Positions 6,202-28,061 of a stretch of DNA of 28,978 nt are shown here, one piece after another. Positions within the stretch are counted from its first letter, which is position 1. Every line of letters starts with the position of its first letter. The stretch is from UHGV virus genome UHGV-0201389, one strand, 5' to 3'. The DNA comes from a virus. Below the pieces are notes generated by a model. It was not told the DNA's origin. It saw only the letters and a program-made list of their open reading frames with translations, and searched no databases. The translations under genes and the position numbers were made by a program.

Positions 6202-6206
6202 TAATT

Positions 6207-6236: not shown

Positions 6237-6264
6237 TGTAAATACTCCATAAAAGGGGGTACTA

Positions 6265-6555: not shown

Positions 6556-6961
6556 TATGCCTCGATTAGTTCTTAAACGCGCTTTCATGGACATTATTAC
6601 CGACCAGCTAGGGTTAGAGCTAAATGCTGAACATACGAAGCTAGCGAGCGATACAGACGCTACCGTTTGGATCGTTGAAATGAATGAAACGTTTACCCCG
6701 ATCCGTGGAAGTGGTAATGGGCAATTATCATCACTGAATATTGAATTTCAGGTCTTTTCTAGTCGTGGTGAAACAGCCGTTCATAAGGCAGTTTATGAGT
6801 TAATTAAAATTGATGCAACTAACCCGCGATTAATCGAAACAGGTATTCGTATCATGGATATTAACCCTGTAGCAAGTAACACTAGCTGGGAAGATGATTC
6901 CAGCGATGGTTATGTAGTCGCAACACTAACACTAAAAATTGACTATCAAGCGCGTTTTTAA
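6539..6961 (+). CDS. Putative head-tail connector / tail terminator-like protein (140 aa)
   Basis: ORF overlapping the previous gene by 17 nt, SD GGGGG upstream; size and position typical of neck proteins. Function is positional inference only. Confidence 0.55.
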   Translation: MASMNNMPRLVLKRAFMDIITDQLGLELNAEHTKLASDTDATVWIVEMNETFTPIRGSGNGQLSSLNIEFQVFSSRGETAVHKAVYELIKIDATNPRLIETGIRIMDINPVASNTSWEDDSSDGYVVATLTLKIDYQARF

Positions 6962-6970
6962 GGGGTAATA

Positions 6971-7804: not shown

Positions 7805-7828
7805 TTGCTTCTCTAAATAAAACATGAC

Positions 7829-7865
7829 GCGGGGAGGTTAATTCCTCCCTTATTCCTGTTTTATG
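7829..7865 (+). terminator. Putative terminator/hairpin upstream of the tail fibre gene
   Basis: GGGAGG-ttaatt-CCTCCC stem-loop followed by a U-rich stretch. Confidence 0.5.
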
Positions 7866-7877
7866 TGAGGTGATTAG

Positions 7878-10800
7878 ATGCAATCAATCCAATTTAAACG
7901 CACACAGACGGCTGGTAAAAAGCCAACGCCGGAACAATTACAGGTCGGTGAAATCGCTATTCAGATGGCAGACCATGTAATTTATACCAAAGATAAAAAT
8001 AACGCAGTAGTTCAAGTAAGTGTTTCTCCTGAAAGCCATAATGCTTTAAACACGAAAGTAGACAATAACAAGAAAACTACTGATTCTACTATCGCGGCAA
8101 ATAAAACCGAAGCTGCTAACGCTCTGGCTACCGCTAAATCTGAACTGAATAACACCATTACCACGAAAGATACAGCAACCAATAAGCGCATTGATGCTAC
8201 TAACACCACTGTTAGTAACTTAACCCAGACAGTTACGGCAAATAAAACCGACGCTGACAGCAAACATACCACTTTAACTAACACTGTTGCGGCAAACAAA
8301 TCAGCTATTGAAACTACCGTAGCGAATAACAAACGAGATGCGGACAATAAAATCTCAGCTTTAACCACTACGGTTAATGACAATAACACCGCGATCAATA
8401 GCCGTGTTGATGCCACCAACACCAATGTTAGCAATCTGACCAAAACCGTTACAGCTAACAAGTCTGATGCTGATTCTAAGATCTCCAGCTTAACGAGTAC
8501 CGTTGCGGCTAACAAATCAGCCATTGAAACTACGGTAGCGAACAATAAACGCGACGCTGATACGAAGATCACCAACTTAACCAACACTGTTAATAGCAAC
8601 CACACCGCCATTAACGCGAAGGTAGACAAAAACAAGACCGATGCAGATGCAGCGATTGCAGCCGCTAACCGTCGAATTGATGGTATTGAAGGTAGTGCCG
8701 ATGCTGCTTACATCAAGAAGAATACCAATACCTATCATCATGGCTATCTGTTAAGCAAGACTGCTAACTACTTTGATGATACCGGTGCTCGTAACCTTGA
8801 TTATTTTGGTGCGTTTCGTCCGAACAATGCCGAAGGGTGGGGTAACTTAATCCTTAACATTCCTCATTCTGGCGGTAAAGCACACGGTCGCGGCTTTGAG
8901 TTCCATTATGGGTCTAGCTCATCTCAGGTTAAAACCTATGGCTTTGATGCTAACGGTGCTAAAAGATTCAGCTATCGCATGTATCACGAAGGTGATAAAC
9001 CTACACCATCGGAATTGAACGTTTACAGCAAACAAGAAGTTGATCGTATGTTTGTTAAAAACGTTAAAATGTCGGTTCCTTCTGGTGATGCAACTCGTGG
9101 ATATTTTAAGATTGCAACCGCAATGATTCCGCAGCAAGGCAGAATGGCATTTATTCGCATCTATGGTGGTAACGGTTATAACGTTAATTCTTACGATCAA
9201 GTTGACTTTCTTGAAATTGTTATCCGTAGCGGCAACGGAAACCCTAAAGGAGTTAGTATTGCTGCATATCGTCGAAATGCTAAAAATATTCATCAAGTAT
9301 TTGCGGTTAACACTTCCGGTGATAACTACGATATCTACGTTAACTACGGTCGTTATACTGATAACGTTATTGTCGAATATGGTAAAACTAACGATGTTAC
9401 ACTGACGGTACATGACGTTCCTGAAATAACTCTCGTTAAGCCGTCCACTGGTGTTACTGATGGTAAAGTAATTACCATGTTTAACACAGAGAACAAAGCC
9501 GGAACTATTCGTTTTGATGATAATACACAGGGAACTTACGATATTATCAGTTTGTGTAATGATACTGGTGATGGTAAAAAATATCTTCGTCAGTTCCGTA
9601 GTAAATCAGGTCATACTATTTGGCATGAAACTGTTCAGGGTAGCGTGTACCGCCTAGCTACTGGCACTACTGACTCAAACGAAGTTCTTAAAATTACCGA
9701 CCGCACGCTGCAAACTGGTCGTGCTGTTCTTGATGGTGGTAATATTCGTTTAGAACGCCAGACAGGGAATAGTAACCTTGTTGAATATTGGGATCGTCGT
9801 AACGGTGCTAACGTTCGTCAATCATGGTTTGGTTTTGGTAATGCCGACACTAACGCATTCCAGATCTATAGTGATGCTGGTAAAAACAACTTTGCGTTAG
9901 AACAAAGCGGTCAGATCTCTCTTAATGTTGGTGCAACAAAAATTGTCCATACCAACGGGCAATATATTTCAACTAACGCTGATGCATATCGTATGATTTA
10001 CGGTAATTACGGTGCATTCTGGCGAAATGATGGTGTTAAAACCTATCTTCTGTCTACCGCCGAAAATGATAAATGGGGTAGCTGGACTGGAAACCGTCCA
10101 TTCATTTATGAATTTAGTTCCGGTAACGTTAATTTAGGTGGTGATTCCAATAAATCCGCATTGACCTTAGAAGGTGCAAGCAAAGCCGCTCGATTTGGTG
10201 GTCATGTTTATACTGGCGGTAACTTACATAATACTGGACAGCATATAACGATGGAAGCCGGACTTGCTGGACAATCCCGCGATTTTATTCGCTTTAACCA
10301 TTGGGGTGATAGCAGTAACGGTCGTGATAACGTCCTGTATGTGGAAGATAGCAAAGGACGTCATTTCAGCACCGAGCGTAATATGGCTACTGGTGGATTG
10401 AAAGCAAACTTCTTAGGAGACTTTGAAGTTGGTGGTAAATTGACATGGGGTAAAGGTACAGCACAATCCTCGTTTAACTGTCGTGTTTGGGGTAATGCTG
10501 ATCGTAAACAGGTTTTAGAGTGGGCTGATGAAAGCGGTTGGCATTTCTATAGCCAGCGTGCAGGTGGTCCAGGAACTACAGCGATTCAGTTTAGTGTAAA
10601 TGGACAAATCAACGCACAAAACTTGAACGTTTCTGGTAAGGTTACTACCCCGCAAATTAGCGCATTTGGTGTAAACGTTGCTAATGGATTAGGTGGCAAC
10701 TCAATTGTTTTGGGTGATAGTGATACTGGCTTTAAGCAAAACGGCGACGGTATTTTAGATGTATATGCTAACAATGTGGCAGTAATGCGTTTTACTTCCG

Positions 10801-11156
10801 GTGCAATCACCGCAAACAAAGCAGTAAACGTAACTGGTCGAGTTACACCAACTGATTACGGTAACTTTGACGGTCGTTATATCAAAAAGACGAAAGGTTG
10901 TACTAAAATCTGGTCCGGTACTCTCCCTGGTAATACCCAGACCGGAGGTTTACCACAAGATCTCCGCTTCCGTAATGTGTGGATTCTTGACGCCGCAGGA
11001 TTTAACCATTTTATCCGTTTTGCCAATGACGGGAACTATTACCTGGCTGGTAACGGTGGATGGATTAAAATCCAACTTCACTCTAGCGGTAAAATCTTTA
11101 AGAACATTCAAGATTCTAACTTCGTTCCGCGTGAAATCTGGGTAGAAAACGAATAA
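7878..11156 (+). CDS. Tail fibre protein (1092 aa) with conserved fibre N-terminal motif and internal tandem repeats
   Basis: N-terminus KRTQTAGKKPTPEQLQVGEIA resembles the attachment motif seen at the start of many phage tail fibres; ~72-aa Thr/Asn/Ala-rich tandem repeats; Gly/Asn/Tyr-rich C-terminal half. Confidence 0.8.
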   Translation: MQSIQFKRTQTAGKKPTPEQLQVGEIAIQMADHVIYTKDKNNAVVQVSVSPESHNALNTKVDNNKKTTDSTIAANKTEAANALATAKSELNNTITTKDTATNKRIDATNTTVSNLTQTVTANKTDADSKHTTLTNTVAANKSAIETTVANNKRDADNKISALTTTVNDNNTAINSRVDATNTNVSNLTKTVTANKSDADSKISSLTSTVAANKSAIETTVANNKRDADTKITNLTNTVNSNHTAINAKVDKNKTDADAAIAAANRRIDGIEGSADAAYIKKNTNTYHHGYLLSKTANYFDDTGARNLDYFGAFRPNNAEGWGNLILNIPHSGGKAHGRGFEFHYGSSSSQVKTYGFDANGAKRFSYRMYHEGDKPTPSELNVYSKQEVDRMFVKNVKMSVPSGDATRGYFKIATAMIPQQGRMAFIRIYGGNGYNVNSYDQVDFLEIVIRSGNGNPKGVSIAAYRRNAKNIHQVFAVNTSGDNYDIYVNYGRYTDNVIVEYGKTNDVTLTVHDVPEITLVKPSTGVTDGKVITMFNTENKAGTIRFDDNTQGTYDIISLCNDTGDGKKYLRQFRSKSGHTIWHETVQGSVYRLATGTTDSNEVLKITDRTLQTGRAVLDGGNIRLERQTGNSNLVEYWDRRNGANVRQSWFGFGNADTNAFQIYSDAGKNNFALEQSGQISLNVGATKIVHTNGQYISTNADAYRMIYGNYGAFWRNDGVKTYLLSTAENDKWGSWTGNRPFIYEFSSGNVNLGGDSNKSALTLEGASKAARFGGHVYTGGNLHNTGQHITMEAGLAGQSRDFIRFNHWGDSSNGRDNVLYVEDSKGRHFSTERNMATGGLKANFLGDFEVGGKLTWGKGTAQSSFNCRVWGNADRKQVLEWADESGWHFYSQRAGGPGTTAIQFSVNGQINAQNLNVSGKVTTPQISAFGVNVANGLGGNSIVLGDSDTGFKQNGDGILDVYANNVAVMRFTSGAITANKAVNVTGRVTPTDYGNFDGRYIKKTKGCTKIWSGTLPGNTQTGGLPQDLRFRNVWILDAAGFNHFIRFANDGNYYLAGNGGWIKIQLHSSGKIFKNIQDSNFVPREIWVENE
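8187..8618 (+). repeat. Two tandem ~216-nt (72-aa) repeat units inside the tail fibre gene, with a degenerate partial copy upstream
   Basis: RIDATNTTVSNLTQTVTANKTDADSK...AANKSAIETTVANNKRDAD recurs as RVDATNTNVSNLTKTVTANKSDADSK...AANKSAIETTVANNKRDAD; nucleotide copies differ mostly at synonymous positions. Confidence 0.8.
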
Positions 11157-11229: not shown

Positions 11230-11706
11230 ATGTCTCAACAATTCAAAGATATTTTTACTGGTGGTCTGGTAAGTCTGTTCTATCACGCCGATACCACTAA
11301 CACCGCTCTCGATCATGAAAGCTATGAAGAAATTAAAGAGTGTGCTGGTTTCCCTGAAACTGGTATCGAGCGCGGTACTGTAGAAGTTAAATCCTTCTCT
11401 TCTCAGTATAACCGCAAGCTGGTAGGTAAACTGAACGTTCCTGATCTGACTCTGACCGTTAATTATATTCCCGGGGATACCGTGCATGAGCGTCTTATTA
11501 AGGCTGCCGAAGATGGTACCCGTATTCAGATTAAGATTGAATACTATGTTGACGCAGCAAAACAGACTGGTATTCGCACCGCTTTCAACGGCTTTATTTC
11601 TAAAGTTGCTATGCAGGGCGGCGATGAAGAAGTGGTAACTAAAGAATTTACCTTTGCTGTTGATGGTGCTCCGCTGAAACAGGAAATCTTCAATACTGCC
11701 GCTTGA
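11230..11706 (+). CDS. Major tail tube protein (158 aa)
   Basis: TAAGGGGTAATTATATG initiation motif, strong high-expression codon bias, sits directly upstream of the chaperone pair and tape measure gene. Ends in TGA. Confidence 0.75.
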   Translation: MSQQFKDIFTGGLVSLFYHADTTNTALDHESYEEIKECAGFPETGIERGTVEVKSFSSQYNRKLVGKLNVPDLTLTVNYIPGDTVHERLIKAAEDGTRIQIKIEYYVDAAKQTGIRTAFNGFISKVAMQGGDEEVVTKEFTFAVDGAPLKQEIFNTAA

Positions 11707-12638: not shown

Positions 12639-15146
12639 ATGTCAGAATTTAAAATTGGTATTACTGGTGTAACCAGTGGCCTAGAATCTGCCGCAAATAA
12701 AGCAAGCGGTATTCTTGATGGCCTTGCTTCCGGTGGCGTTGATGGCTTGACTAGTTCCGTAGGTGGATTGTTAGGCAAGCTGGGTCCATTGGGTATGGCT
12801 GCTGGTGCTGCTTTAGGTGCTCTTACTGCTTTAGCTGCTGGTGGCGCTAAAATGGCTGTTGAATATGCCAACATGTCGAGAGAATTTGGCGTTAATATTG
12901 AGCAAATCCAGAAGTTAGAAAAAGTTTATAGTGGTTTTGGTCTGAATGCCGAAAAAGTTCTTGATATTAACAAGGATGCAGCCGAGAAATTAGGGGAAGC
13001 ATGGCGAGACGGTACAGGGGAATTTCAAGCCGCTCTTAAAATGATTAAAGGTGATATTAAGGATTACGCGGCCTTTACCGACGATCCAGAAGGGGGTCGC
13101 AAAGCTGCTGAAATGTGGTACTACCAAGCGAAGGCCGCAGGATTAAGCCATTCTGAAATCATCGCGGGTATGGAACGTATTGCTTCCGATTCCAGTAAGA
13201 TGATCGGTGCTTTGTCTGAATCAAACGATTATTGGGAACATCAAGTTAAGCTACAACAAAAAGCCGCTTATGTCTCAGAGGAAACCGCTACCGCATATGC
13301 CGACGCGGGGTCTAAACTGACCGAGTTAGGGAAGACCATAATGGGTGCTTTCGCGGATTTATTTTCGTTCCTCCCGAAAGGATTCAACTTAATCTATGAT
13401 TATTTCACTAAAGATTTTGCGAATACTACTTTCTATTTGAGCATTAAGGCTATCAGCACGTTTATTGCTGAAAAACTGCCTCCTTTGTTCCAGAAAGCTA
13501 AGACCGCGTTAACGTCAGCCATTAACCCGATCATCAATACCATTAAAACCGTACAGGAAACGATGGTTAATCTTTACAATAAGATTGCCGAAATCATCGC
13601 TAAAGTACAGAACATGATCCGCAAGGGTGGTAAAACTATAGCTGGCTGGTTTGGTGCTGATGCCGACTTCCTGAATTTTGAAATCCCAGCATTGACTACC
13701 GATAACATCAAGAAAGGTGCTCAAGCGTTAGCCGATGGTATAGCCAGTGGAGTTAGTAACGGGACAGCAACCAGCTTTGATGAACTGGCAGAACAAGAAC
13801 GCAAGAAACAAGCGGCTGAACTCCAAGCGCAAGCGGACGAACTGAAACGGAAACAGGAAGAAGAGAACAAACGTAATGTTCAAGTTCTTTGCCCTATCTG
13901 TAAAAAAGGCGCACATAGTGCCGCAGATTGTCCAGAAGCCAAGAAACAGAAAGATGCAGCTAAGAAGGCCGCAGACGAAGCGAAGAAATTGCGTGAAAAG
14001 GCATACAAGGATTTAGAGGCAATCAATATTTCTTTGTATAGCTCCGTGCAAGCGTCTGTAGCTTCCTCGAATAAACAGATCGTAGAAAACCTTGCTAAGT
14101 TAGATAACGCTCTGAAACAGGGTATTATCACGCAAGAACAATACGAAGAAAAACGTCGTCAGCTTATTGATGCTAACGCGGAAAACTTCCGTAAATCTGT
14201 ATTAGGTGCTAATCCTTCCGATGCTCTCCAGATGTTAGCGGCATCACGTCAAATCTATGACCAGTCGGTTGCAGATCTTGAAATGATGTACAACAACAAA
14301 CTGATTAAGCAATCTGAATACTTACAGCGTAAAAAGGATTTAGAGGCTGCTTTCTCTGCTCGTACCGATGCGACTACCGGATTAGAAGGTATCAAATCTA
14401 ATGAGATGCTCAATTCTTACGGTAATCGTGATCAGACTATCGATGAGATGAAAGCCGTTGATGTCGAGAAGGCCAACACTGAATATTCAGAACATAAAGC
14501 CAAGATCGATAAGCTGCCTCAAGCTGAACAATTTAAGCAATTGCAAGCTCTCAATGAAGCGCACAATAAGAAAATGCGTGAAATTGACTTAAAATACAAT
14601 AACATGCGCTTGCAAGATACACAAAATATGTTCGGTGGATTTGGTGAAGCATTACAAGCATTTGGCTTAGAGAATAACGCTGTTACTAAGGGTATCTTTG
14701 CCGCTCAGAAAGGCGTGTCTATTGCACAAGGTTTGCTCAATGCTCATGAGGCCGCAACGGTAGCTATGGCTAAGTACCCAGGACCATTGGGTGTTGCTAT
14801 GGGTGCTGCAAGCTATGCGTCCGCAATTGCTCGTGTTGCTCAGATGAAATCAATCACCGTTGATGGTATGGCGCATGATGGTATTGATAACATCCCGCGT
14901 GAGGGTACATGGCTTTTGCAGAAAGGGGAACGAGTCGTTGATGATCGTACTAACGGTGATCTGAAAGACTTCCTATCTGCTCAAAAATCAGGCGGTAATA
15001 ACAACTCTCAGCCGATTGAAGTTAATGCGCCTTTGAACATTAACGGCAATGTCAATAGCTCCGACAAGATGGTCATGGATGCTATCAAACGTCATGCTAA
15101 GTTGGTTGCTCAGGCGGTGGAAGACGCACAGCGCCGTAAGATGTAA
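12639..15146 (+). CDS. Tail tape measure protein (835 aa)
   Basis: Long ORF after the chaperones; Gly/Ala-rich hydrophobic N-terminal segment, extended Ala/Lys/Glu-rich coiled-coil-like regions, Gly-rich hydrophobic segment near the C-terminus; SD AAGAGG upstream. Confidence 0.85.
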   Translation: MSEFKIGITGVTSGLESAANKASGILDGLASGGVDGLTSSVGGLLGKLGPLGMAAGAALGALTALAAGGAKMAVEYANMSREFGVNIEQIQKLEKVYSGFGLNAEKVLDINKDAAEKLGEAWRDGTGEFQAALKMIKGDIKDYAAFTDDPEGGRKAAEMWYYQAKAAGLSHSEIIAGMERIASDSSKMIGALSESNDYWEHQVKLQQKAAYVSEETATAYADAGSKLTELGKTIMGAFADLFSFLPKGFNLIYDYFTKDFANTTFYLSIKAISTFIAEKLPPLFQKAKTALTSAINPIINTIKTVQETMVNLYNKIAEIIAKVQNMIRKGGKTIAGWFGADADFLNFEIPALTTDNIKKGAQALADGIASGVSNGTATSFDELAEQERKKQAAELQAQADELKRKQEEENKRNVQVLCPICKKGAHSAADCPEAKKQKDAAKKAADEAKKLREKAYKDLEAINISLYSSVQASVASSNKQIVENLAKLDNALKQGIITQEQYEEKRRQLIDANAENFRKSVLGANPSDALQMLAASRQIYDQSVADLEMMYNNKLIKQSEYLQRKKDLEAAFSARTDATTGLEGIKSNEMLNSYGNRDQTIDEMKAVDVEKANTEYSEHKAKIDKLPQAEQFKQLQALNEAHNKKMREIDLKYNNMRLQDTQNMFGGFGEALQAFGLENNAVTKGIFAAQKGVSIAQGLLNAHEAATVAMAKYPGPLGVAMGAASYASAIARVAQMKSITVDGMAHDGIDNIPREGTWLLQKGERVVDDRTNGDLKDFLSAQKSGGNNNSQPIEVNAPLNINGNVNSSDKMVMDAIKRHAKLVAQAVEDAQRRKM

Positions 15147-15151
15147 TTAAA

Positions 15152-15196
15152 AGCCCTCATAGTGATAAATAATCTTAAAACTATGGGGGCTTTTTC
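15152..15196 (+). terminator. Hairpin with T tract between tape measure and distal tail genes (attenuator/terminator)
   Basis: 11-bp stem AGCCCTCATAG / CTATGGGGGCT around an 18-nt loop, followed by TTTTT; overlaps the upstream in-frame start candidates of the next gene. Confidence 0.5.
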
Positions 15197-15197
15197 T

Positions 15198-15758
15198 ATG
15201 TTCAATTCTCGTAATATTAAAATCACAGATTTTACTCTTAAATCAAAACAGCCTTTCTTCAAGGCGCAAGCAATATCCGGTAAATTTCAACGTCGATTCA
15301 CTGGCATTCATTTTTATGAAGCAGAATTTACAGCCAACTTCATGGCAGAACATATCAATGAAGTAAAAGAATTCGTAGCACGTCATCTTTTTGGTCGTCC
15401 TTTCAGAGTTCCATTGTCTTACTTTTCAAAATATACGGGTGATGTACGTCAGATGGTAACGGCTGCTGCTCGTACCGACCGTGGTGGGCGCAAGGTAAGA
15501 CTCTCCAACTTCACCGGAACACTGAAAGCAGGAACTATCATCCAGTTTGAGAACCACAAGAAAATCTACACAATCACCGAAGATGTTAAGTCAGGTGGCG
15601 AAATGAAACTCTTCCCTAACTTACGCCAGCATGTTCTCGCGGGTGAGGTGATCAAGTATCAGAACGTAGAAGGTGAATTCCTTCTCAAGACCGAAAATAT
15701 TGATTGGAAGATCGCCCAAATCGGAAAGATGAAATTTGAATTAGTGGAGAATGTATAA
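15198..15758 (+). CDS. Minor tail protein, distal tail / gpM-like position (alternative starts 15162 GTG, 15183 ATG)
   Basis: ORF directly after the tape measure gene; the ATG at 15198 lies just past the hairpin and is preceded by GGGGG; stop overlaps the next start as TAATG. Confidence 0.6.
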   Translation: MFNSRNIKITDFTLKSKQPFFKAQAISGKFQRRFTGIHFYEAEFTANFMAEHINEVKEFVARHLFGRPFRVPLSYFSKYTGDVRQMVTAAARTDRGGRKVRLSNFTGTLKAGTIIQFENHKKIYTITEDVKSGGEMKLFPNLRQHVLAGEVIKYQNVEGEFLLKTENIDWKIAQIGKMKFELVENV

Positions 15759-16411
15759 TGGCAACTATTCAGGAATCATTCAGTAAACTATGCACTAATC
15801 TGGACTTCATCGAGGTATACAACGACCAGACAGGTCAGAACGTGTCTAGATTGACTCTACCGCAACTTTTCTCCACCGGATCGATGTTTCACATTATCGA
15901 AGTAGTAACCGCGTCAGGGGACGTTCTACGGCTTACTGATGGTTATTTCGATTTGGACTATAACGGGTTTACGTATCTCGCAACGGGTGATTTTCTTAAA
16001 ATCTCATCTAACACCGAAGAGAAGGAGATCAACAACAACGGGATCAACGTAACTGTTTCTAACGTCCGTGAAGAGTATGTAACTCTCATTCGTAACAAGC
16101 AATTCGATAAATCTGATGTAAAAATCGAGATGGTTTTCCTTAACCCTAACACGGGCAAGGTAGAAACCACTTACCCTGTTTTCCGTGGGGTAGTCGATTC
16201 CATCGGTATTAACATCGAACATGAAGATGATGAGTGTAAAAACGAATCAGAATTCCAGCTTAATAGTATCTGGGAAGTTCTAGATAAAAACGCTCGTAGT
16301 CATGCCTCCGATGGTATTCACCGTTCGTATGCCGGAAACGAGAACGATCTATTCTTCTCCCGCGCCGGGAAGTGGAATAGCGAAAGCAAGTGGCATTCAT
16401 CTAAGAAATAA
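15758..16411 (+). CDS. Minor tail protein, gpL-like position (217 aa)
   Basis: Translationally coupled to the preceding gene (TAATG overlap, SD GGAGA); sits between the distal tail and NlpC/P60-like genes. Confidence 0.6.
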   Translation: MATIQESFSKLCTNLDFIEVYNDQTGQNVSRLTLPQLFSTGSMFHIIEVVTASGDVLRLTDGYFDLDYNGFTYLATGDFLKISSNTEEKEINNNGINVTVSNVREEYVTLIRNKQFDKSDVKIEMVFLNPNTGKVETTYPVFRGVVDSIGINIEHEDDECKNESEFQLNSIWEVLDKNARSHASDGIHRSYAGNENDLFFSRAGKWNSESKWHSSKK

Positions 16412-16457: not shown

Positions 16458-16877
16458 ATGCTAAAAACTAGGCTTATCACTGATTACATCAATTCATTAA
16501 TAGGTCGGGAATTCGTTCAAGGTGAGAATGATTGCAATCTGATTGCATGTAAGATCATCGATATTCTCGCAGGGACCGACCTGTTTAATTCTCTATATCA
16601 AAAATATTCGACAAAAGAAGAAGGCTTGAAAATCTGCAAAGAATTAAGCGGATACACAAACATCCTTCAACCAATTAAAGAACATTTCAAATTAGTCACT
16701 GATGATTTACAGGACGGCGACTTACTGGTCACAGCCCACAAATTAGGAAACCGTAATTATTATTCCGTAGTTCCTCATTATTCCGGTTATGGCCTCGTTG
16801 AAGAAGATGGTATCTGGATGACCATTCCTGTTTCAGACATTGACTATGAACAAGTTTATAGATTCGGGGGTGAATAA
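16458..16877 (+). CDS. Tail tip assembly protein with NlpC/P60-like domain, gpK-like (139 aa); the listed ORF start at 16302 is rejected
   Basis: [12 protein letters not shown] Cys motif and downstream His residues consistent with an NlpC/P60 papain-like fold; SD GGAGG 8 nt before the ATG at 16458; stop overlaps the gpJ-like start (TAATG). Confidence 0.55.
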
Positions 16878-19800
16878 TGGGAATTGAAGTATTGGTAGGC
16901 GCGGTTATTGCTGGTGCGTCTGCTGGGATGGCTGCTGCTGCAACATTTTCTGTTATGACCGCAGTCGCTATCGGTATGGCTGCTGGTGCTATGACCTTGA
17001 TCGCTTCCACTGTAGGCGCACCAAAAACACCAAAAGTACAAAGCCCAGATAATGCGGTGACGCTAGGAACATCAAACGATCCTAAGACAGTATTACCCGT
17101 TCTTTTCGGTACTACCCGTACTGGTGCGATTTGCGTTTATAAGGCTATTTCTAAGAAAGAAAACAATAAGTTAGTTCAAATCTTCGCAATTGCAGAAGGT
17201 GAAATTGACCATTACAAAGCACTGTTTATCGATAATAAAAATGTTCTCGTTGGTAAGAACATGACGATCCGCGATGGTGTACTGGACAAGGGCAACATTA
17301 AAGAAGAATACCGGAAAGTATTAGAGGTTGAATTCCGCACTGGTAAGAATCCTAACACCGCCTTGTCACTGGCAAAAACTCACTTAGGCTCAGACTGGAC
17401 CGACGCTTACAAGGGTAACGGCATTGCTACCATGTGTATTGTTTTACGCCGTGATGATAAATCTCTTGCTGCTGGTGTTGATATTCTCCAGCCTAATAGC
17501 CAAGTGGCAGTCGATGTTATGGGCTTAAAAATTCGTAACCTTGAAACCAATGCTATTGAGGCCAGCACTAACGGCGTGGACCAGATTTTCCACTACCTAA
17601 CAAATGAAAAATATGGTCTTTCAGTACCAATTGAAAACATTAACGTTGATTCGTTCCTGAAAGTTCGCCAGCAAGTTCGCCAAATGGACCTACATTCAAA
17701 CGGTGCATGTGATCCGAACGCCAGCTTTAAAGAGAACTTAACTAGCCTTATGCAGACTTTCGGCGGGGTGATGTTCGAATCCTTCGGACGTATTACTCTG
17801 AAACTGGATGCTCCTGATATTGTTAAGCATGTATTCAATGAAGACAATATTATGATGGGTAAGGTATCGCTTAAGACTGGTGGCACTAACGGTTATTTCA
17901 ATACCATTAACGCGATGTATCAAGAACCATCAATTGACTATTCAGAGCAAATGCTACGTTATCCGGCTGATGCTGAAAATGATGCTACTATCCGCGAAGA
18001 TGGTCGAATTATTGCCAAAGATATTGAATATCGTTTTGTTAAGTCTAAAGACCAGATTGATAAACTTGCGAGCATTGAACGAAATAAATCTCGAATCACT
18101 CAGGTTATCAGCTTTATGACTACTGACGCATTCACTGCCGAAGTGTGGGACGTTATCAGCGTAACCTATGATGAATTAAAACTGAATAATTCCTTATGGC
18201 GTATTACTGCAATTGATCGCAGTATCGATTCTGGTATTGCTGGGATGATGACTATCACCGCCACAGAATATAATTCTCAGGTTTATACTGACCTGAACTA
18301 TGCGGCGAATCCAGACAATAGACCAACTGGTTTACCGGATTCAATGACAGTACAGAAGCCAACTAATTTCAGAATTAAGGCAACTGGTGAGACAATCCAC
18401 GGTAAAAACGTTACTTTGACATGGGATGCACCGGAAGACTTCAACCGTTACGGCTTCCAGATTGATTACAAAGTGAGTGGATCACCTAACTGGATTAAGC
18501 TGGGACAGACTTCACAGCAAATTTTCAATATCAATGCACTGGCAAAAGATCGTTCCTACGATTACCGCGTGTGTGCTTTCGGTATCATCGCCCGTTCTGA
18601 TTGGGTAGAACTGGTTAACCAGAATCCAGAAGTTACCTATGAACTACCTACGCCAGTGATCCGTATTAAAAATCAGGGTAGCACACCTGGTACTTTCGAA
18701 GGCAATGATCTGATTATTGAATGGGATAACCAGCAAAAATTAGATGTTGTTATCAACGGTGAAACTAACAAGTTTAGCGACCTGTTCGAAGCCTACATTA
18801 TCAAGGTAACTAACAAGGCTGGTAAGTCTATTCAGTACCGTACCCGCGATCCTGAATCGTGGACCTATACGCTTGATATGAACCAGTTTAACGGCCTTTC
18901 CCGTCAACTGACGGTAGAAGTATCCGCTAAGGGTTATAACAACTCTGTGAGCGCTCCAGCGCGTTTAGTGGCTATTAACCCACAGCATAAGCCAATGAAA
19001 GGATTTAGTGCGCGTGGTGGCTTTAATAGTGTGTTTGTTAGCTGGACCGATGACGTAGAACATGACTATGCAGGGTCAATCATTCAGTATGCAACCGACA
19101 ATACTTTCTCTGATGCAAGGGCGGTGACAACTAACAGCGTTAGCCATACTTCCTTTGATTTGGCTGATGGTGATTATTATATCCGTGGTGCTCACTACGA
19201 TATTTTCGGTATCGATGATGCTGTTTGGTCTGAACCTTATTACATGTCTATGCAATCTTCGATTAGTTGGGAAGATCAGGACAAAGAAGCACTGGAAGAC
19301 CTGATTGGTTTACAGGATCGCTTAGATGAAACTATCGCTGATGCTATTGCTCAAGCTGGCGCTAATGCTGATGCTAAAATCGATGCAATGCATAAGCAAA
19401 TCACCACCGAAACGGGTAAAACTGTTCAAGCCTCAGCCGATACCTTAAAGAGTCTGATTACTTCTGGTGATCAAGCCAGTGCAACTAAGATTGATCAGGT
19501 TAAAGCTGAACTAAAAGGCGATATCACGAAAGAGGTTAGCGCATCTGCTACTACCCTGAAACAAGCTATTGCAACCAGTGAGGCAGCAAGCGCAAGTAAG
19601 ATTGATCAAGTTCGGGTAGAAATGGACGGTAAGATTGCTGGCGTTAACCAGGAAGCAGATGTAAAAATCGATGCTTTGAAGGGAACCATTAACAGCAAAT
19701 ATAATCTGGCAGTTAATGCAGATGGTCGCGTGGCTGGTATTCACATGAGCGCAACCAACGATCCGGCACAACCGACGAGAATCATCTTTACGGCTGATAA

Positions 19801-20653
19801 AATCGCGGTAGCTCCACAATCTGGATCGGGTGTTTGCCCGTTTGGTATCGAAAATAACAAGGTTTATCTCGATAATGCCATGATTCGTAATGCTGCAATT
19901 GGCACAGCACAGATTAATGATGCGGCTATTACTACCGCTAAGATCGGCAATGCTGCAATTAACAGCGCGAAGATTCAGGACGGGGCAATCACTAACGCCA
20001 AGATCGTAAACGGTGCAATTGATAATGCCAAAATCGGTAACTATATCCAGTCTTCCAACTGGAACGGATCTACCGGATGGCATATTAACAAGAATGGTAG
20101 TGCTACGTTCATGAACGCCACCGTTAAAGGTAATATCACGGCTGATTCTGGTACTCTGAACAACGTCACGATTAACTCTAGCTGTGTTATTAAGGGTATG
20201 CTTGAAGCTACTCAGGTTAAGGGTGATTTCGTTAAGGTGATTGGTCGTAAGTTCCCGCACCGTGATGTTAACGTTGATAATGGTTATGCAGGTTATCCAC
20301 AGGGTACGGTCACTGTTCGCGTTGAAGATGATCATAACTTTGACCGTCAAATCGTTATTCCGGCAATTAGTTTTGGTGGATTGCGAGCGCGTGAAGGATC
20401 GAACGGTAATACGTTTTATGACACATGTCGCCTAATTGTTCGTAAGAATGGGTCAGAGTTGTATAATAGGGCGTATGGTGGCAATACTGGTCTTTACTCT
20501 GGTGTTATTGATATGCCGAGGGGTGGTGGTGCTGTAACTATCACGTTTGAAGTACAATCAAGCGCAATCAACAACTGGACACCGAGTACATGGATTAGTG
20601 ACTTAACGGTAATGGTAACTAAGAAAGCAACTACCGGTATTACTGTTTCTTAA
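16877..20653 (+). CDS. Central tail fibre / host specificity protein, lambda gpJ-like (1258 aa)
   Basis: Follows the gpK-like gene as in lambda; Gly/Ala-rich hydrophobic N-terminus; fibronectin-III-like segments; Ala-rich coiled-coil repeats; AKI-type short repeats; C-terminal ~150 aa ([12 protein letters not shown]...[13 protein letters not shown]...LTVMVTKK) resemble, from memory, the lambda J receptor-binding domain. Confidence 0.85.
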
Positions 20654-20755: not shown

Positions 20756-21034
20756 ATGACTGAAATTATATATGGCGGTATCGGTGTTATCGCCTTAATT
20801 TGTGGTGGGCTTTGGAGACTCCACCGAAATCAATTAGCCACAGAAAATAGGTTGTCTAAATTGGAATCCAGCGACGCATTGTTAAACCAGAAGTTTGAGA
20901 CGATGCAAAGTAACCATGACCAGATTGCCGAGAGAGTTTATCGAATGGAACAAACCCTGCACGGTATAGAAAAGAAAGTGGTTGCTATGGACGCCAAATT
21001 TGACCAAGTTATCGATTTACTCAAACAAAAATAA
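20756..21034 (+). CDS. Membrane-anchored coiled-coil protein (92 aa), possible lysis-associated (spanin/antiholin-like) or exclusion protein
   Basis: N-terminal hydrophobic helix (IIYGGIGVIALICGGLW) followed by a heptad-like charged region; SD GGGGG upstream; AT-rich codon usage distinct from the structural genes. Confidence 0.5.
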   Translation: MTEIIYGGIGVIALICGGLWRLHRNQLATENRLSKLESSDALLNQKFETMQSNHDQIAERVYRMEQTLHGIEKKVVAMDAKFDQVIDLLKQK

Positions 21035-21053
21035 TAATACTAAGGGTGAATAT

Positions 21054-21224
21054 ATGAAGAATAAACTTAAAAAATACTTTGGTTATCTCTTAATAATCGC
21101 CCTCACTTATAACGTAGCATTACGACCTCTGCTTACGTCCTTCGGGCTTAATCTTCCGGCTATGGCTGTGAATGATGAATTGCTTAGGACTATAGCGGGG
21201 GTCTTTTCGTTATTAGGGGGCTAA
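21054..21224 (+). CDS. Small membrane protein (56 aa), holin-like candidate
   Basis: ATG preceded by AAGGGTGA; basic N-terminus then hydrophobic segments (YFGYLLIIALTYNVAL, IAGVFSLLGG). The longer ORF from 20982 overlaps the upstream gene and lacks an RBS. Confidence 0.45.
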   Translation: MKNKLKKYFGYLLIIALTYNVALRPLLTSFGLNLPAMAVNDELLRTIAGVFSLLGG

Positions 21225-21225
21225 C

Positions 21226-21831
21226 ATGTCTAAACCGAAAATCTCATCCAACATTGATAAGGTGAAGAAAGACATCAAGGATTGGAAAAAGAAGGCTAGT
21301 AATAGTTTTCATAAAGATTTAGGTTTAGCGGTCATTGATGAGCGGGTAAAGTTACAGAAGAAAATCAATTCAAGGATAGATCGCCCGACCAAATTCACAC
21401 AGAAAGCGGTCAATTCATATAACCGTATTCGCTCCAGTGGTAAAACGTCTTTTCATAGCGTTTTTATCATGAACAATCAGGAAAAATACTTAAAATACTA
21501 CTTTGAAGGTGGTAGTAATATTGAGAAATTTGTTCCTGTAACCGATGACCGTACTAACCAATTTGGTAACATTCCACAACTCAAAAACGGTAAGAAAATA
21601 GGGAAGTATGTAACCACCAAATCTAAATCAGGTAAAATACTACTTCTCGATCCATCCGTTAAAGCAGGAATGAAAAACAAGAAAAAGCTAGGAAAGCGTC
21701 TTGTTGCGGTTTTGAAGACAACCGACCGTAGTAACATTATGGGGTCATGGAAAGAAAATGAAAATGAGATGAAAAAGAATATCCAGAAGAGAATGAAAAA
21801 ACACTTCATAGGTAAGATCAATTTCGTCTAA
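21226..21831 (+). CDS. Lys-rich basic hypothetical protein (201 aa)
   Basis: ORF with SD GGGGG; very Lys/Asn-rich; no recognisable catalytic motif. Confidence 0.6.
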   Translation: MSKPKISSNIDKVKKDIKDWKKKASNSFHKDLGLAVIDERVKLQKKINSRIDRPTKFTQKAVNSYNRIRSSGKTSFHSVFIMNNQEKYLKYYFEGGSNIEKFVPVTDDRTNQFGNIPQLKNGKKIGKYVTTKSKSGKILLLDPSVKAGMKNKKKLGKRLVAVLKTTDRSNIMGSWKENENEMKKNIQKRMKKHFIGKINFV

Positions 21832-21870
21832 TCCATAAATACCCTCATAGAAACTTTATGAGGGTATAAC

Positions 21871-22218
21871 ATGGCTAAAAATATTTTTACTGAATTCCCC
21901 ACTTATCCGGTCGATCAGCTCTCCGGTATTTTTATTAATGGCATTAGCCCAGAATCTATGACACATGATTTTGAGGCAAAGAGAGTACAACATAAACAAT
22001 TCAAGCAAATGATCCGCGATGATGGTAATGGGCTAGTGTTTTGTGTTGCGACACTCGCTAAACGTCCTAAGTATCGTTTTCGTGTAGGCCAAGAGATTGA
22101 CATTGATAATCCTTATAATTTCAACTGCTTAGGTGACACGCGAGCGGTTTGCTTAGGTACTGCTCCTTATTATATCAAGGGTATGCGCTTTATTGGATAT
22201 ATCTTCCAGTACCTTTAA
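21871..22218 (+). CDS. Hypothetical protein (115 aa)
   Basis: ORF with upstream GAGGG; no recognisable motifs; immediately upstream of the peptidase gene. Confidence 0.55.
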   Translation: MAKNIFTEFPTYPVDQLSGIFINGISPESMTHDFEAKRVQHKQFKQMIRDDGNGLVFCVATLAKRPKYRFRVGQEIDIDNPYNFNCLGDTRAVCLGTAPYYIKGMRFIGYIFQYL

Positions 22219-22229
22219 GGGGGTAATAT

Positions 22230-22583
22230 ATGTTAAGCAAATACTTTTCCCGCAAGGAATTCAAATGTAAATGCGGAAAATGTGATTATGATACTATCGA
22301 CGCTGAATTGCTGGTAGTTCTCGATGATGTTCGTGAACACTTCGGGAAACCAGTAATTATTAACAGTGGGAACCGTTGTCCGACTCATAACAAGAATGTA
22401 GGCGGGGCAACCAATAGCTATCACGTTCGAGGCCGTGCGGCTGACATTGTAATCAAGGGTGTCTCCCCTGATATTGTCCATGCTTATCTTGATGGGAAAT
22501 ATCCTACTCAATATGGTCTAGGCAAATATAAAACCTTTACGCATATTGATAGCAGGTCGAAAAAATCTAGATGGAATGGTTAA
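22230..22583 (+). CDS. Peptidoglycan peptidase, Peptidase_M15 (MepK/YcbK-like zinc hydrolase) - probable endolysin
   Basis: YFSRKEF...SGNRCPTHNKNVGGATNSYHVRGRAADI...HID matches the His/Asp/His zinc-binding pattern of M15-family cell-wall peptidases; TAAGGGGGTAATATATG initiation motif; followed by a strong terminator. Confidence 0.65.
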   Translation: MLSKYFSRKEFKCKCGKCDYDTIDAELLVVLDDVREHFGKPVIINSGNRCPTHNKNVGGATNSYHVRGRAADIVIKGVSPDIVHAYLDGKYPTQYGLGKYKTFTHIDSRSKKSRWNG

Positions 22584-23012: not shown

Positions 23013-24506
23013 TTATGCGAGCATTATACGTTTTTGAGTCCAGTCGAATTTATCGGATATATAACACTTTATTCTTTCAAGCGCATGACTAACAGCATAA
23101 TTCTTACGGGTAACTTTTCCATTCTTACCCACAATGCAAAGGTCGTCTATCAAATCCCATACTACCGCAATTGCTTTACTACCATGTTTCCTAAGAGCAC
23201 GTCCTATTGATTGCCGGACAATGGTTGATTCTTTAACCGGATGACCAAAGATGACATGGTGTAGATTCTTAATCGAAACACCAGTAGAGAAAACACCATA
23301 GGAGGCAACTACAATCAATCCTTTCTCATTTTCAGCCATTTTCTTTAAGGCATCGCGTTCGGCGGTGGTAATCTCACTGGAAACGTAATAAACCTTATCG
23401 TAAACGCGCTGTAATGCATTATAAAGCATTTTTCCATGCTTAGAGTACCGGAACATCAAAAATACGTTTTCTTGCTTTCTAGCGAGTTTTAAGGCCAATT
23501 CACAAGCCAGTTTATTCCTTGCTTTGTGACCATTGATGAATTTAATCTCTTCCTGATAATCTTTACCCCGCATTGCTTTACATTCTTCATCCTTGTACTT
23601 GAGGAAGAGAGCATTAATCTTAAGCTGGGTAACTTGTCCGTCATCCATCAATTGTTTTATTGCTACTATCTTCTGAATATCACCAAACAACCCGACATAT
23701 TGCATTAAATGGCATTTTGATTCTTTCGGGGAACCAGTCATACCGATTTTGAACTGGCAGTGATTCATTCCGTTGATGATGTTGGTGATATTCTTTGCAC
23801 TGGCACGATGTGATTCATCAACTATCAACATTCCATATTGTCGGAACCATTCAGGAGGCATCTTGCAAGCTGATTGCCATGTACTGACAGTGATTAACCT
23901 GTCTCCCGGATGTTTCCCGCTACCACTCATCATTGTATGGATTGCTTCATGAGGGAATAGCCTATAATCGACAAAATCATCCCTCATTTGAACCACCAGC
24001 GATGTAGTCGGGACAATGATTAGAATCTTTCCGGTGTAGTTCTCCAGATACCAACGAGACAGCATACAAGCAATCAATGACTTACCCGCACTGGTAGGAA
24101 GAACCAGCATTCTACGGCGATTATGGATACCCTGAAATACTGCCTCCCTTTGATACCAGTAAGGATTGATTTTATTGCTACCGGAATACACTTCTAAAGA
24201 GTCAATCCATGAATCAATCTGTTCTTTGGTTACATCTTCCTTCTCAAGCAATCTGGGGTCTACCCATACGCTATAGCCCATGTTTTTAGCGAAGATACCC
24301 AATGTTTTCAATAATCCGATTGGCAGGGTATTTTCATGCGTAAACAGTCTTATCTTTCCATCCCAGCCGGAATATTTGTAGCGGGGGCTAAATCTAGCCC
24401 CTTCAACCTCAAACGAGAAATAATCTCTTAATTCCATCCCAATGGAAGGAGAGCATTCAACCTTAACGAAACTGTAATCTTGAAAATGAATGTTAATATC
24501 TTGCAT
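23013..24506 (-). CDS. uvsW: UvsW-type SF2 DNA helicase (start at ATG 24506; the listed ORF extends to GTG 24515)
   Basis: Walker A LPTSAGKS, DExH-type motif II IVDESH, and an N-terminal domain (HFQDYSFVKVEC...LRDYFSF) characteristic of T4 UvsW-like helicases; ATG overlaps the stop of the upstream gene (TAATG). Confidence 0.85.
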   Translation of the reverse strand: MQDINIHFQDYSFVKVECSPSIGMELRDYFSFEVEGARFSPRYKYSGWDGKIRLFTHENTLPIGLLKTLGIFAKNMGYSVWVDPRLLEKEDVTKEQIDSWIDSLEVYSGSNKINPYWYQREAVFQGIHNRRRMLVLPTSAGKSLIACMLSRWYLENYTGKILIIVPTTSLVVQMRDDFVDYRLFPHEAIHTMMSGSGKHPGDRLITVSTWQSACKMPPEWFRQYGMLIVDESHRASAKNITNIINGMNHCQFKIGMTGSPKESKCHLMQYVGLFGDIQKIVAIKQLMDDGQVTQLKINALFLKYKDEECKAMRGKDYQEEIKFINGHKARNKLACELALKLARKQENVFLMFRYSKHGKMLYNALQRVYDKVYYVSSEITTAERDALKKMAENEKGLIVVASYGVFSTGVSIKNLHHVIFGHPVKESTIVRQSIGRALRKHGSKAIAVVWDLIDDLCIVGKNGKVTRKNYAVSHALERIKCYISDKFDWTQKRIMLA

Positions 24507-25075
24507 TAGTTCCACTCCACACTTGCAATATTCTTTATATTGTTTAGTGATTTATTGCAGTAGTGGAATGTTTCAGTTTTGCCGTATTCAATCCCGCCTA
24601 TACCCACATCCAACATTCTCTTTATTGCTCGCTCAGTGGCTAGCGCATGTTTCATTGATGGCATTTCACGAGCATAGACAATATCAAAGTTATGACCGGG
24701 ATTGCGTAAGCCCAGATTAACCCTACGTTTGATAATCGATTTTGTTACACCAAATTTACCAATATCGCCGGATTGCATCACATAGAGATATGGTACACCC
24801 GCTTTATATTGAAAATAATCACTCTTGAAACATACACAGCGTTTGCCTTCATTAAGCAGGTTAGTAGCTGATTTGTCGGCTCTATCACCGCAGCGAGTAC
24901 ATGTAAGAGCAATTCTCGTGTGAAGCCCTTTAAACTCACCCAGAAAGCCATGAAAGACTAACGGTAAGTCATTATCTTTGATGTGAGTAAGAATGCGTTG
25001 TTCTAATGCTGGTGGAGTTACAGCACGGGATGATTTAGGAGTAAAAACAATATCTTTAGCCATTACTGGAATCAT
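24506..25075 (-). CDS. Zn-ribbon + T5orf172/GIY-YIG-like domain protein (189 aa)
   Basis: CTRCGD...CVC zinc-ribbon-like Cys cluster followed by YLYVMQ...KFGVTKS...R...GKTETF, matching the T5orf172 (GIY-YIG-like) pattern; SD GTGAGG upstream; coupled to the helicase gene. Confidence 0.65.
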   Translation of the reverse strand: MIPVMAKDIVFTPKSSRAVTPPALEQRILTHIKDNDLPLVFHGFLGEFKGLHTRIALTCTRCGDRADKSATNLLNEGKRCVCFKSDYFQYKAGVPYLYVMQSGDIGKFGVTKSIIKRRVNLGLRNPGHNFDIVYAREMPSMKHALATERAIKRMLDVGIGGIEYGKTETFHYCNKSLNNIKNIASVEWN

Positions 25076-28008: not shown

Positions 28009-28061
28009 ACCATTTCCAAACAAAAACGCCCCGACCGAAGTCGAGGCGATATTACACACAT

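Follow-up and report, generated by a model that had tools for sequence, protein, structure and literature searches.

The viral genome UHGV-0201389 encodes a gpJ-like tail-tip protein directly downstream of a gene in the position of lambda K, and this arrangement raises the question of where the counterpart of lambda gpI is to be found. An earlier note on the DNA analysed here (a stretch of 28,978 nt, in the following referred to as the window) had stated that a gpI-like function may be fused to the tip protein or absent. Judged by sequence comparison, it is fused: the N-terminal ~95 residues of the tip protein share homology with the C-terminal half of lambda gpI, including its hydrophobic helices, plug and beta-strands.

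Gene neighbourhood of the tail-tip open reading frame

The following genes of the tail region were considered:

15162..15758, plus strand: distal tail protein (Dit; phrog_1302, E 8.8e-16; matches to T5 pb9 weak)
15758..16411, plus strand: separate hub hdI/attachment protein of 217 aa (PF09931/DUF2163, E 9.9e-6, 26.2 bits; phrog_2048)
16458..16877, plus strand: DUF6950 protein of 139 aa in the lambda K position (PF22262, E 6.7e-12), without JAB domain
16877-20653, plus strand: tail-tip open reading frame of 1258 aa with ATG start (ORF list and translation)

The tip ORF is present in the ORF list exactly as given in the earlier note. Its start codon and the stop codon of the preceding gene overlap (TAATG). 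A separate gene would not fit between the tip ORF and the K-position gene, as the earlier note had also claimed for gpI, and a purine run (GGGGGTG) is located 5-11 nt upstream of the ATG. Full-length homologs of the tip protein with 84-93% identity were found in E. coli, and an ortholog carries the PGAP label 'phage tail tip (domain-containing) protein'. For the DUF6950 gene, the ATG at 16458 and not the one at 16302 was identified as the true start, being preceded by GGAGG 8 nt upstream and giving a protein equal in length to its PGAP ortholog. The 217-aa protein is labelled by PGAP as 'DUF2163 / baseplate hub domain-containing' and had no sequence match in the PDB. An antisense ORF at 19511-20350 was rejected as a gene, with nothing found in its favour.

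When the tail region was compared with 50,697 phage genomes by megablast nothing was returned, and there is thus no close cultured relative in this set. The prophage type was detected in 57 of 5426 complete E. coli genomes (~1%), which identifies E. coli as the host and agrees with the Escherichia/Shigella-like host predicted earlier.

The N-terminal segment and lambda gpI

Two segments precede the hub domains of the tip protein:

16877..17017, plus strand: residues 1-47, Gly/Ala-rich hydrophobic segment, predicted to be membrane-inserting and equivalent to gpI helices H1/H2 (profile alignment to gpI 117-155)
17018..17161, plus strand: residues 48-95, gpI C-domain-like plug and beta-strand, with motifs of 12 residues each (BLASTP, tblastn, hhalign)

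The Gly/Ala-rich hydrophobic start of ~50 residues described in the earlier note was recovered both in composition and in hydropathy. Of residues 1-50, 15 are Ala and 7 are Gly, and the only charge within residues 1-47 is carried by E4. In Kyte-Doolittle scans with 19-residue windows, values above 1.6 were reached in the tip protein at the N-terminus only; the same scan gave no such window in lambda J, whereas lambda gpI has them at ~101-156. The segment was earlier called atypical of a J N-terminus, which holds in comparison with lambda J but not within the tip protein's own family, where it is normal, and it is analogous to the RcGTA megatron. The hydrophobic N-terminus, with invariant positions, recurs in homologs of E. 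coli, Salmonella, Citrobacter, Klebsiella and phage DCP80 whose genes were called independently, and is therefore no start-codon artefact.

The relationship to gpI was detected by several types of comparison. BLASTP against gpI 156-223 gave 35% identity (E 1e-6), and tblastn of gpI 121-223 against the whole window returned a sole match at 16949-17197 (E 2e-4), so that the search for a gpI homolog suggested in the earlier note led, within the window, to the N-terminus of the tip ORF and nowhere else. A profile of 6 family sequences compared with 177,635 PDB sequences ranked gpI first (E 3.3e-6), and with a 12-sequence family profile gpI was matched with E 1.4e-6 and, through the same beta-strand, T5 pb3 262-314 with E 1.6e-6. 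By hhalign against a gpI family alignment a probability of 96% (E 4.8e-9) was obtained over gpI 137-214. The colinearity extends beyond gpI, as tip-protein residues 99-112 match lambda J 20-35, and the single chain of T5 pb3 likewise has the J-like motif contiguous with the gpI-like strand, just after the pb3 plug.

It was also considered that the hydrophobic N-terminus could be unrelated to gpI and resemble it in composition only, representing either a mis-called start or a peptide with signal or anchor function. Alignments of hydrophobic stretches rich in Gly and Ala arise easily, Pfam yielded nothing meaningful in residues 1-148, and in single-sequence phmmer of the tip protein against the PDB the gpI-region match reached only E 0.29. 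This explanation is nevertheless regarded as very improbable: the significant stretch of the alignment comprises the polar, non-hydrophobic residues 48-99, so that the gpI match is no composition effect, and gpI is the top match of two independent profiles. A mis-called start or a signal peptide was rejected in view of the conservation of the start, its translational coupling to the upstream gene and the missing Sec-type positively charged n-region.

The homology to gpI is restricted to its C-terminal half, the portion visible in the lambda virion, whose beta-strands lace into the hub. The ubiquitin-like (Ubl) domain of gpI, PF06805, was not found, as residues 1-148 gave no Pfam match even at E values up to 10 and tblastn of gpI 1-99 against the window gave nothing better than E 2.9; in the window and in one related prophage, neither Ubl nor JAB domains were found by sequence similarity. 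Since PF06805 covers only the Ubl domain (gpI 14-97), the fusion is invisible to domain annotation. When residues 1-130 were compared as a single sequence with 1.84 billion representatives by phmmer, other fused long tail proteins were returned but no lambda-type gpI, for which profiles were needed. In an AF2 model of residues 1-508, residues 1-70 (pLDDT ~25) and 336-390 were unmodelled; with no confident structure for residues 1-70, the plug arrangement discussed below is derived from homology.

Whether the fusion persists as one chain may depend on the K-position gene, which the earlier note had called gpK-like. The position is that of K, but the protein has no JAB domain and resembles only the Cys/His motif region of the NlpC/P60 half of K. 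DUF6950 was its sole Pfam match, without any JAB/MPN domain, whereas lambda K was assigned Prok-JAB and NLPC_P60 together with a weak DUF6950 match (E 0.067). The GxxDC and GD..H motifs of the DUF6950 protein and lambda K align, with an hhalign probability of only 3%; tblastn of lambda K against the window gave nothing, a DUF6950 profile had no match in the PDB, and a single-sequence AF2 model (pLDDT 40) was too poor for a fold search. If DUF6950 were a papain-like peptidase, the fusion could be cut post-translationally, for example by this protein, and the virion would then contain separate I-like and J-like chains. Such processing would fit the translational coupling of a putative Cys/His peptidase-like gene to the tip ORF, and proteolytic processing in the K/I/J system was predicted by Iyer et al. 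(PMC1779556). It is considered quite unlikely, however, as no cleavage motif was identified in the fusion protein, the equivalent segments of T5 pb3 form one uncleaved chain in the solved structure, and DUF6950, at most a putative relative of NlpC/P60, lacks an invariant His across its homologs.

Hub, fibre and receptor-binding region

Downstream of the gpI-like part, the tip protein is divided as follows:

17162..18316, plus strand: residues 96-480, baseplate-hub domains of hdII-hdIV type
18317..19276, plus strand: residues 481-800, FN3/Ig-like beta-sandwich string (one Pfam-recognised domain; domain number inferred)
19277..19666, plus strand: residues 801-930, alpha-helical/coiled-coil segment with heptad-like A/D/K/I repeats (coiled-coil-type Pfam matches weak)
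19667..20074, plus strand: residues 931-1066, tail-tip straight fibre (PF09327), ending in xAAIxxAKI repeats
20075..20650, plus strand: residues 1067-1258, lambda-J-type receptor-binding region (PF12421 proper at residues 1124-1258, nt 20246-20650)

Residues ~96-480 are a T5-pb3-like hub, the hdI part of which is contributed by the separate 217-aa DUF2163 protein. It resembles T5 pb3 more closely than lambda J, and both the hdII-insertion/hdIII/hdIV fold and a plug ahead of the conserved strand are pb3-type features found in the tip protein; a pb3-type hdI is not part of the chain, the upstream PF09931/DUF2163 protein being present instead. In the beta-sandwich string an fn3 domain was detected at residues 506-570 (E 8.9e-6, 26.3 bits, with the segment scanned alone), and the tail fibre families phrog_5616 and phrog_496 matched in this region. 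Residues 801-930, in which a 50-residue block (851-900) is substituted in some relatives, would be equivalent to the helical segment above the straight fibre of lambda J. The straight fibre itself was recognised by PF09327 at residues 931-1028 (E 1.7e-19; 70.4 bits, cut-off 22) and by phmmer matches to PDB chains of T1, F2-pyocin and a J-like fibre. PF24801 (FNIII-A), PF24421 and PF24489, which occur in lambda J, were absent from the Pfam matches of the tip protein, and BLASTP against lambda J gave nothing significant outside the C-terminus.

At the C-terminus the resemblance to the lambda J receptor-binding domain, suggested in the earlier note, proved significant: residues 1067-1258 (1070-1257 in the BLASTP alignment) are 41% identical to lambda J 949-1131 (E 5e-34), and PF12421 (Ig_GpJ_C) was assigned to residues 1124-1258 (E 1e-32; 113.5 bits, cut-off 26.2). 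By phmmer against the PDB, the gpJ chains 8iyk/8xcj were matched with E ~1e-33 and 9wca ('A8 gpJ 713') with E 1.3e-49; the C-terminus is 46% identical to this OmpC-binding A8 gpJ. The earlier proposal of a swappable module agrees with the relatives, which are 98-100% identical up to residue ~1100 and ~50% beyond, placing the breakpoints at residue ~1100-1125. Alleles of the domain within the family share 48-62% identity with strongly variable loops, and homologs from Klebsiella, Citrobacter and Enterobacter carry different C-termini. From these alignments, the receptor-binding domain is a module that relatives exchange as a cassette.

Among the known receptors of PF12421-type domains, LamB is used by lambda and OmpC by A8/1A2 (PMC11338833; PMC11101478). 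As the domain of the tip protein shares only 40-53% identity with those alleles for which a receptor is known or assumed, no receptor is assignable from identity, and both LamB and OmpC were rejected as assigned receptors because 41% versus 46% identity does not discriminate between them. By analogy, a trimeric porin is our best guess. Binding to a non-porin target, either another beta-barrel protein or a carbohydrate, would be compatible with the distance to characterised alleles and with the variable loops, and J-type fibre tips of other siphophages have been linked to TolC or NupG. It appears improbable, since in the literature searched the receptors of PF12421-type domains are trimeric porins (LamB and OmpC; OmpF by mutation) bound with 3:3 symmetry (PMC11338833; PMC11101478), and the Drexlerviridae tips binding TolC, NupG or LamB are reported to have little homology to the lambda domain.

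Proposed mode of action and known systems

Taken together, the ORF probably encodes the trimer-forming tail-tip protein of a temperate siphophage of E. coli, in which three functions of lambda gpI and gpJ are performed by one chain. In the closed tip, by analogy to lambda, T5 and RcGTA, the three N-terminal segments would be located inside the cone, plugging the channel and supporting the C-terminus of the tape measure. The C-terminal trimer would bind a protein of the outer membrane, a trimeric porin being the likeliest, with one domain per monomer. Receptor binding would then twist the fibre, free the FN3 strings and open the hub, upon which the N-terminal hydrophobic helices could drop out, become inserted in the outer membrane and anchor the tube, and the inserted helices may help to form the lining of the exit through which the tape measure and the DNA leave.

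The membrane step is modelled on lambda gpI, for which structure and a proposed role in plugging and insertion have been described (PMC11101478; PMC10721106; PMC12617516) and whose H1/H2 helices are predicted to be transmembrane (PMC11101478). Insertion of the gpI helices is a proposal even in lambda (PMC11101478; PMC12617516), and the N-terminus could instead be an internal plug or assembly element that never enters the membrane, with the tape measure alone forming the outer-membrane channel. In T5 the channel is proposed to arise from a hydrophobic segment of the tape measure, while pb3 merely anchors via beta-hairpin legs. A Vequintavirus homolog has the strand motif but no hydrophobic helices, and Vibrio phage homologs have a single helix, so that the helices are not universally required. 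A purely internal role is nevertheless judged unlikely, given the conservation of ~45 uncharged hydrophobic residues across Enterobacteriaceae prophages and many unrelated long tail proteins and given that, upon opening of the lambda tip, the density of H1/H2 moves out of the lumen and is directed toward the membrane (PMC11101478). Insertion of the helices is therefore retained as the preferred reading.

With the plug in the same chain as the hub, the gpI Ubl domain and the gpK JAB peptidase predicted to remove it would not be needed. Tentatively, and with some doubt, the lineage may be seen as a natural 'pre-processed' lambda I/J, as the protein starts approximately where the JAB domain of gpK is predicted to cut Ubl off gpI. 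If so, the Ubl/JAB pair of lambdoid phages would serve only to bring a separately made plug to the hub. If the proposed mechanism applies, one chain would detect a porin with one of its ends and become inserted in the outer membrane with the opposite one, and several natural alleles of the receptor domain, borne by a scaffold that is identical in other respects, would provide a compact system for testing both ideas.

The location of gpI is thus answered, its virion half being built into the tip protein, and a gpI-C/plug module, detected by none of the Pfam models scanned, can be assigned to the N-terminal ~95 residues of such proteins. The boundary at ~1100-1125, near a conserved GDFVK motif, represents a natural junction for receptor-domain swaps, as in retargeted lambda-based delivery particles; at least three divergent receptor-domain alleles are carried by this uncultured prophage type of E. 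coli. The solved tail tips of lambda, T5 and RcGTA are linked via this one intermediate architecture.

With lambda gpI and gpJ (PDB 8IYK/8XCG/8XCJ) the protein shares the order of hydrophobic helices, APK..P(K/R) plug, VLPV(L/V)(Y/F)G strand and J N-terminal motif, followed by hub, FN3 string, helical segment, PF09327 fibre and PF12421 domain. The gene position after tape measure, Dit, hub and K is also shared, and the C-terminal 190 residues are 41% identical. In contrast, I and J are two proteins in lambda and one chain in the E. coli prophage, where no homologs of lambda L and M were detectable by sequence; the 217-aa DUF2163 protein corresponds to lambda L and RcGTA g13. T5 pb3 (PDB 7ZHJ/7ZQB) differs in having hdI within the chain and in a plug that refolds into a short amphipathic beta-hairpin, without the ~45 hydrophobic residues of the prophage protein, and in T5 the fibre pb4 and the receptor-binding pb5 (FhuA) are separate, whereas in the prophage they are fused in lambda style.

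The gene order of RcGTA (g12 Dit, g13 DUF2163 hub, g14 peptidase, g15 megatron; PDB 6TBA/6TEH) is matched by the prophage, as is a large tip protein with N-terminal hydrophobic helices that would close the channel; in the RcGTA megatron an equivalent N-terminal iris/penetration domain is fused to the chain (PMC7296036). Megatron chains of RcGTA or roseophage R4C were absent from the PDB profile matches at E values up to 10, so that the link to RcGTA is one of position and function only. Its megatron ends in fibre-binding domains without PF12421, and host and lifestyle differ from those of a temperate E. coli phage. TAPI-TAPJ fusions, NlpC-only TAPK variants and the predicted cleavage of Ubl by JAB were described by Iyer, Burroughs and Aravind in 2006 (PMC1779556). 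Those fusions share with the prophage a TAPI-C module joined to the host-specificity protein and a K-position gene without JAB, but TAPI was defined there by its Ubl domain, whereas the prophage protein has the Gly-rich region and TAPI-C only. I-J fusions and N-terminal penetration domains have thus been described before, and the prophage protein is a mosaic of known parts.

Tip-protein gene and homology of its N-terminus

The gpJ-like tip protein is encoded downstream of several tail genes and is composed of consecutive regions behind its N-terminus, as follows:

12639-15146 (+): tape measure, 5' of the tip gene
15162-15758: Dit with weak pb9 similarity, 5' of the tip gene
15758-16411: hub protein of 217 aa (PF09931/DUF2163)
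16458 (likely start): DUF6950 protein in the K position, with GGAGG 8 nt 5'
16877-20653 (+): tip-protein ORF, 1258 codons, with an FN3-type string (one fn3 reaches the Pfam threshold), then a helical segment, a PF09327 fibre with xAAIxxAKI repeats and a C-terminal receptor-binding domain

ATG 16458 is the most likely start of the DUF6950 gene, as the mechanical ORF from 16302 would give an overlap of 110 nt with the gene before it. The 139-aa product was also called by PGAP in a relative. GxxDC and GD...H motifs are common to this protein and the NlpC/P60 half of lambda K, a likeness at the motif level, and no JAB domain was found in it. In the tape measure, aa 485-509 match a SHOCT domain (E 7.4e-9), which is unusual as an insert in such a protein.

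A purine-rich run lies just 5' of the ATG of the tip ORF. This ATG shares TAATG with the stop of the preceding gene and therefore, as the earlier note had claimed for a gpI-like gene, there is no room for a gene between the K-position gene and the tip ORF. The Gly/Ala-rich hydrophobic N-terminus described there was likewise recovered: Ala and Gly account for 44% of residues 1-50, one charged residue is found within residues 1-47, and hydropathy above 1.6 (19-residue windows) is confined to this segment, which is kept with invariant positions in independently called homologs from E. coli, Salmonella, Citrobacter, Klebsiella and one deposited phage genome. By hydropathy, lambda J is without a segment of this type, whereas lambda gpI has one at ~101-156.

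Lambda gpI consists of a ubiquitin-like domain (Ubl; Pfam PF06805, residues 14-97), a Gly/Ala-rich hydrophobic region and a C-terminal module, in this order. When tip residues 1-148 were compared with gpI by BLASTP, residues 48-107 paired with gpI 156-223 (35% identity, E 1e-6). A tblastn search of gpI against the entire window, covering the homolog elsewhere in the genome that the earlier note had considered, gave 16949-17197 as its sole match, at the N-terminus of the tip ORF. With a profile of six family N-termini against all PDB sequences, gpI was the best match (E 3.3e-6, gpI 119-219), followed by the T5 baseplate hub protein pb3 (263-312); a wider profile of 12 sequences gave E 1.4e-6 for gpI and E 1.6e-6 for pb3 262-314. 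The hhalign comparison with an alignment of gpI homologs yielded a probability of 96% (E 4.8e-9, span gpI 137-214). Mere compositional similarity was ruled out as the source of this likeness, since the columns carrying the significance are polar (APKxPK...D and VLPV[LV][YF]G..R.G).

Directly after the gpI-like module, the tip protein has a motif whose counterparts are LLSVIDAISEGPIEG, close to the lambda J start, and VVYAFAEGEIDGF in pb3. Given this succession of gpI-like module and J-start motif, the tip protein is the C-terminal half of gpI joined colinearly to a J-type protein. Of the two options that had been left for gpI, fused or absent, the searches thus support fusion, of the C-terminal half only.

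The start of the tip protein approximates the beginning of the post-Ubl part of gpI (gpI 100-GGVFQIVLGAAAIAGS against residue 1 onwards), and neither a Ubl nor a JAB peptidase domain was detectable in the window by Pfam and tblastn. According to a prediction by Iyer, Burroughs and Aravind (PMC1779556), gpI loses its Ubl through cleavage by the JAB domain of K. Under this model both domains are expected to be absent if the plug is attached in the same chain, and their joint absence appears to agree with it.

Distribution and receptor-binding domain

A region of 80-95% identity is carried by 57 of 5426 complete E. coli genomes, chromosomal in every case, which confirms the proposed Escherichia/Shigella-like host, here E. 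coli. The prophage of E. coli GN4741 disrupts ycdX and has a large serine recombinase at its end. When 5.8 billion proteins were searched with a profile, 307 family members were retrieved from Escherichia, Klebsiella, Raoultella, Citrobacter and Enterobacter. Tip residues 1-130 gave 30 phmmer matches among 1.84 billion representatives, nearly all located at the N-terminus of long tail proteins (650-2300 aa), and therefore the fused form recurs widely.

No megablast match to the tail region was obtained among deposited phages, and the prophage lineage is an uncultured one. Among deposited sequences the closest is a module of 'Escherichia phage DCP80' (tip protein 39% identical over 96%), with Vibrio siphophages of ~100 kb and a module from Vequintavirus next in order; one hydrophobic helix is present in the Vibrio homologs and none in the Vequintavirus homolog. 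The 141-kb DCP80 record (PQ671644.1), filed under Straboviridae/Gaprivervirus, holds a siphophage-type structural module related to the prophage (terminase 44%) beside T4-like motA and endonuclease VII, and could stem from a chimeric assembly or from a mixed lysate. In EPFV3, a phage filed under Vequintavirus, ORF5-ORF8 (4232-9639) form a four-gene module with gene sizes and order similar to those of the window; the large tip protein ORF8 (23% identity) keeps VVYG..R..G and is without the hydrophobic N-terminal helices, and ORF7 is 20% identical to the DUF6950 protein.

PF09327 lies ahead of the gpJ receptor-binding domain PF12421, which covers tip residues 1124-1258 (E 1e-32), and the lambda-J-like C-terminus was borne out by 41% identity of residues 1070-1257 to lambda J 949-1131 (E 5e-34). 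Within the family, PF12421 is restricted to E. coli members; homologs from Klebsiella, Citrobacter and Enterobacter align to residue ~1117-1133 and are divergent beyond. In two E. coli relatives, P0107 and P0108, identity to the window protein is 98-100% through residue 1100 and ~50% beyond, in line with the swappable host-range module that had been suggested. Other E. coli alleles are 62% or 79-85% identical to that of the window. At the DNA level, no more than 17-21 of the 57 genomes have the window allele (20180-20653), and some matches end at nt ~20245, the PF12421 boundary. Divergence among the alleles is as large as that of each from lambda J (40% identity) or the A8 gpJ chimera that binds OmpC (46%), and the best deposited phage alleles reach 53% identity. 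VEDDH.FDRQ, VIDMP.G.G and V.V.KK...GI are kept as scaffold motifs with variable segments between them. The C-terminus is, from these alignments, a genuine lambda-type receptor-binding cassette.

In lambda, four loops of this domain enter each LamB monomer (PMC11101478), and OmpC is the receptor of A8 and 1A2 (PMC11338833). By analogy with these receptors, a trimeric porin would be the best guess for the tip protein, no particular one being favoured. J-type tips with other specificities occur in Drexlerviridae, reportedly with little homology to the lambda domain.

Within the helical segment, residues 851-900 (19427-19576) are replaced in the otherwise near-identical relatives P0114, P0117, P0125 and P0127 (18-32% identity), which suggests a second recombination cassette besides the receptor-binding domain.

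Other genes of the window

A single 686-aa ORF, 4006-6066 (+), combines the prohead protease (Peptidase_S78) with the major capsid protein (Phage_capsid). A 1092-aa tail-fibre gene at 7878-11156 (+), with PF21446 Gp34_trimer and several tail-fibre PHROGs, is flanked by paralogous major-tail-protein genes (6971-7804 and 11230-11706, both phrog_158). At nt 8744-9693 this fibre gene shares 78-83% identity with the distal long-tail-fibre genes (gp37) of RB49-like T-even phages, suggesting exchange of a fibre segment between temperate siphophage and T4-like myophages.

A probable lysis cassette lies 3' of the tip gene (20756-22583, +). It encodes a protein of 92 aa that has an N-terminal transmembrane helix and a coiled coil, and a small transmembrane protein (within 20982-21224); its further products are a basic, lysine-rich protein of 201 aa, one of 115 aa and an M15 endolysin. 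Neither a lom-like nor a Drexlerviridae-style RBP/exclusion locus was recognised there. At 23013-24515 (-) and 26329-28059 (-) the window codes for a UvsW-like helicase together with a large serine recombinase. In the related GN4741 prophage locus (positions 29197-30876 and 32578-32919), the ycdX insertion adjoins the curli operon.

The tip protein among known tails

Depending on the map, the resolved part of gpI in lambda virions begins at residue ~101 or ~135 and forms a trimer within the tip. It comprises the hydrophobic helices H1/H2, a plug (159-175) obstructing the lumen beneath the C-terminus of the tape measure, and strands by which gpJ sheets are augmented; upon LamB binding the hub opens, the plugs part and H1/H2 are lost from the density, and their insertion into the outer membrane has been proposed (PMC11101478, PMC10721106, PMC12617516). 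T5 pb3 was already equated with gpL and gpI together with gpJ's N-terminal part (PMC10721106); in this single chain the gpI-like and J-like motifs are contiguous, right after the plug (hairpin tip 230-238). RcGTA is without gpI, and its large tip protein, the megatron, has at its start an iris/penetration domain, which shuts the channel and was proposed to form an outer-membrane pore (PMC7296036). The parts, the fusion and the proposed mechanism of the tip protein all have published precedents. A separate baseplate-hub domain hdI is shared by the present system with lambda and RcGTA, and a plug fused to the hub with T5 and RcGTA, so that the tip protein fits as an intermediate in the series of lambda, T5 and RcGTA.
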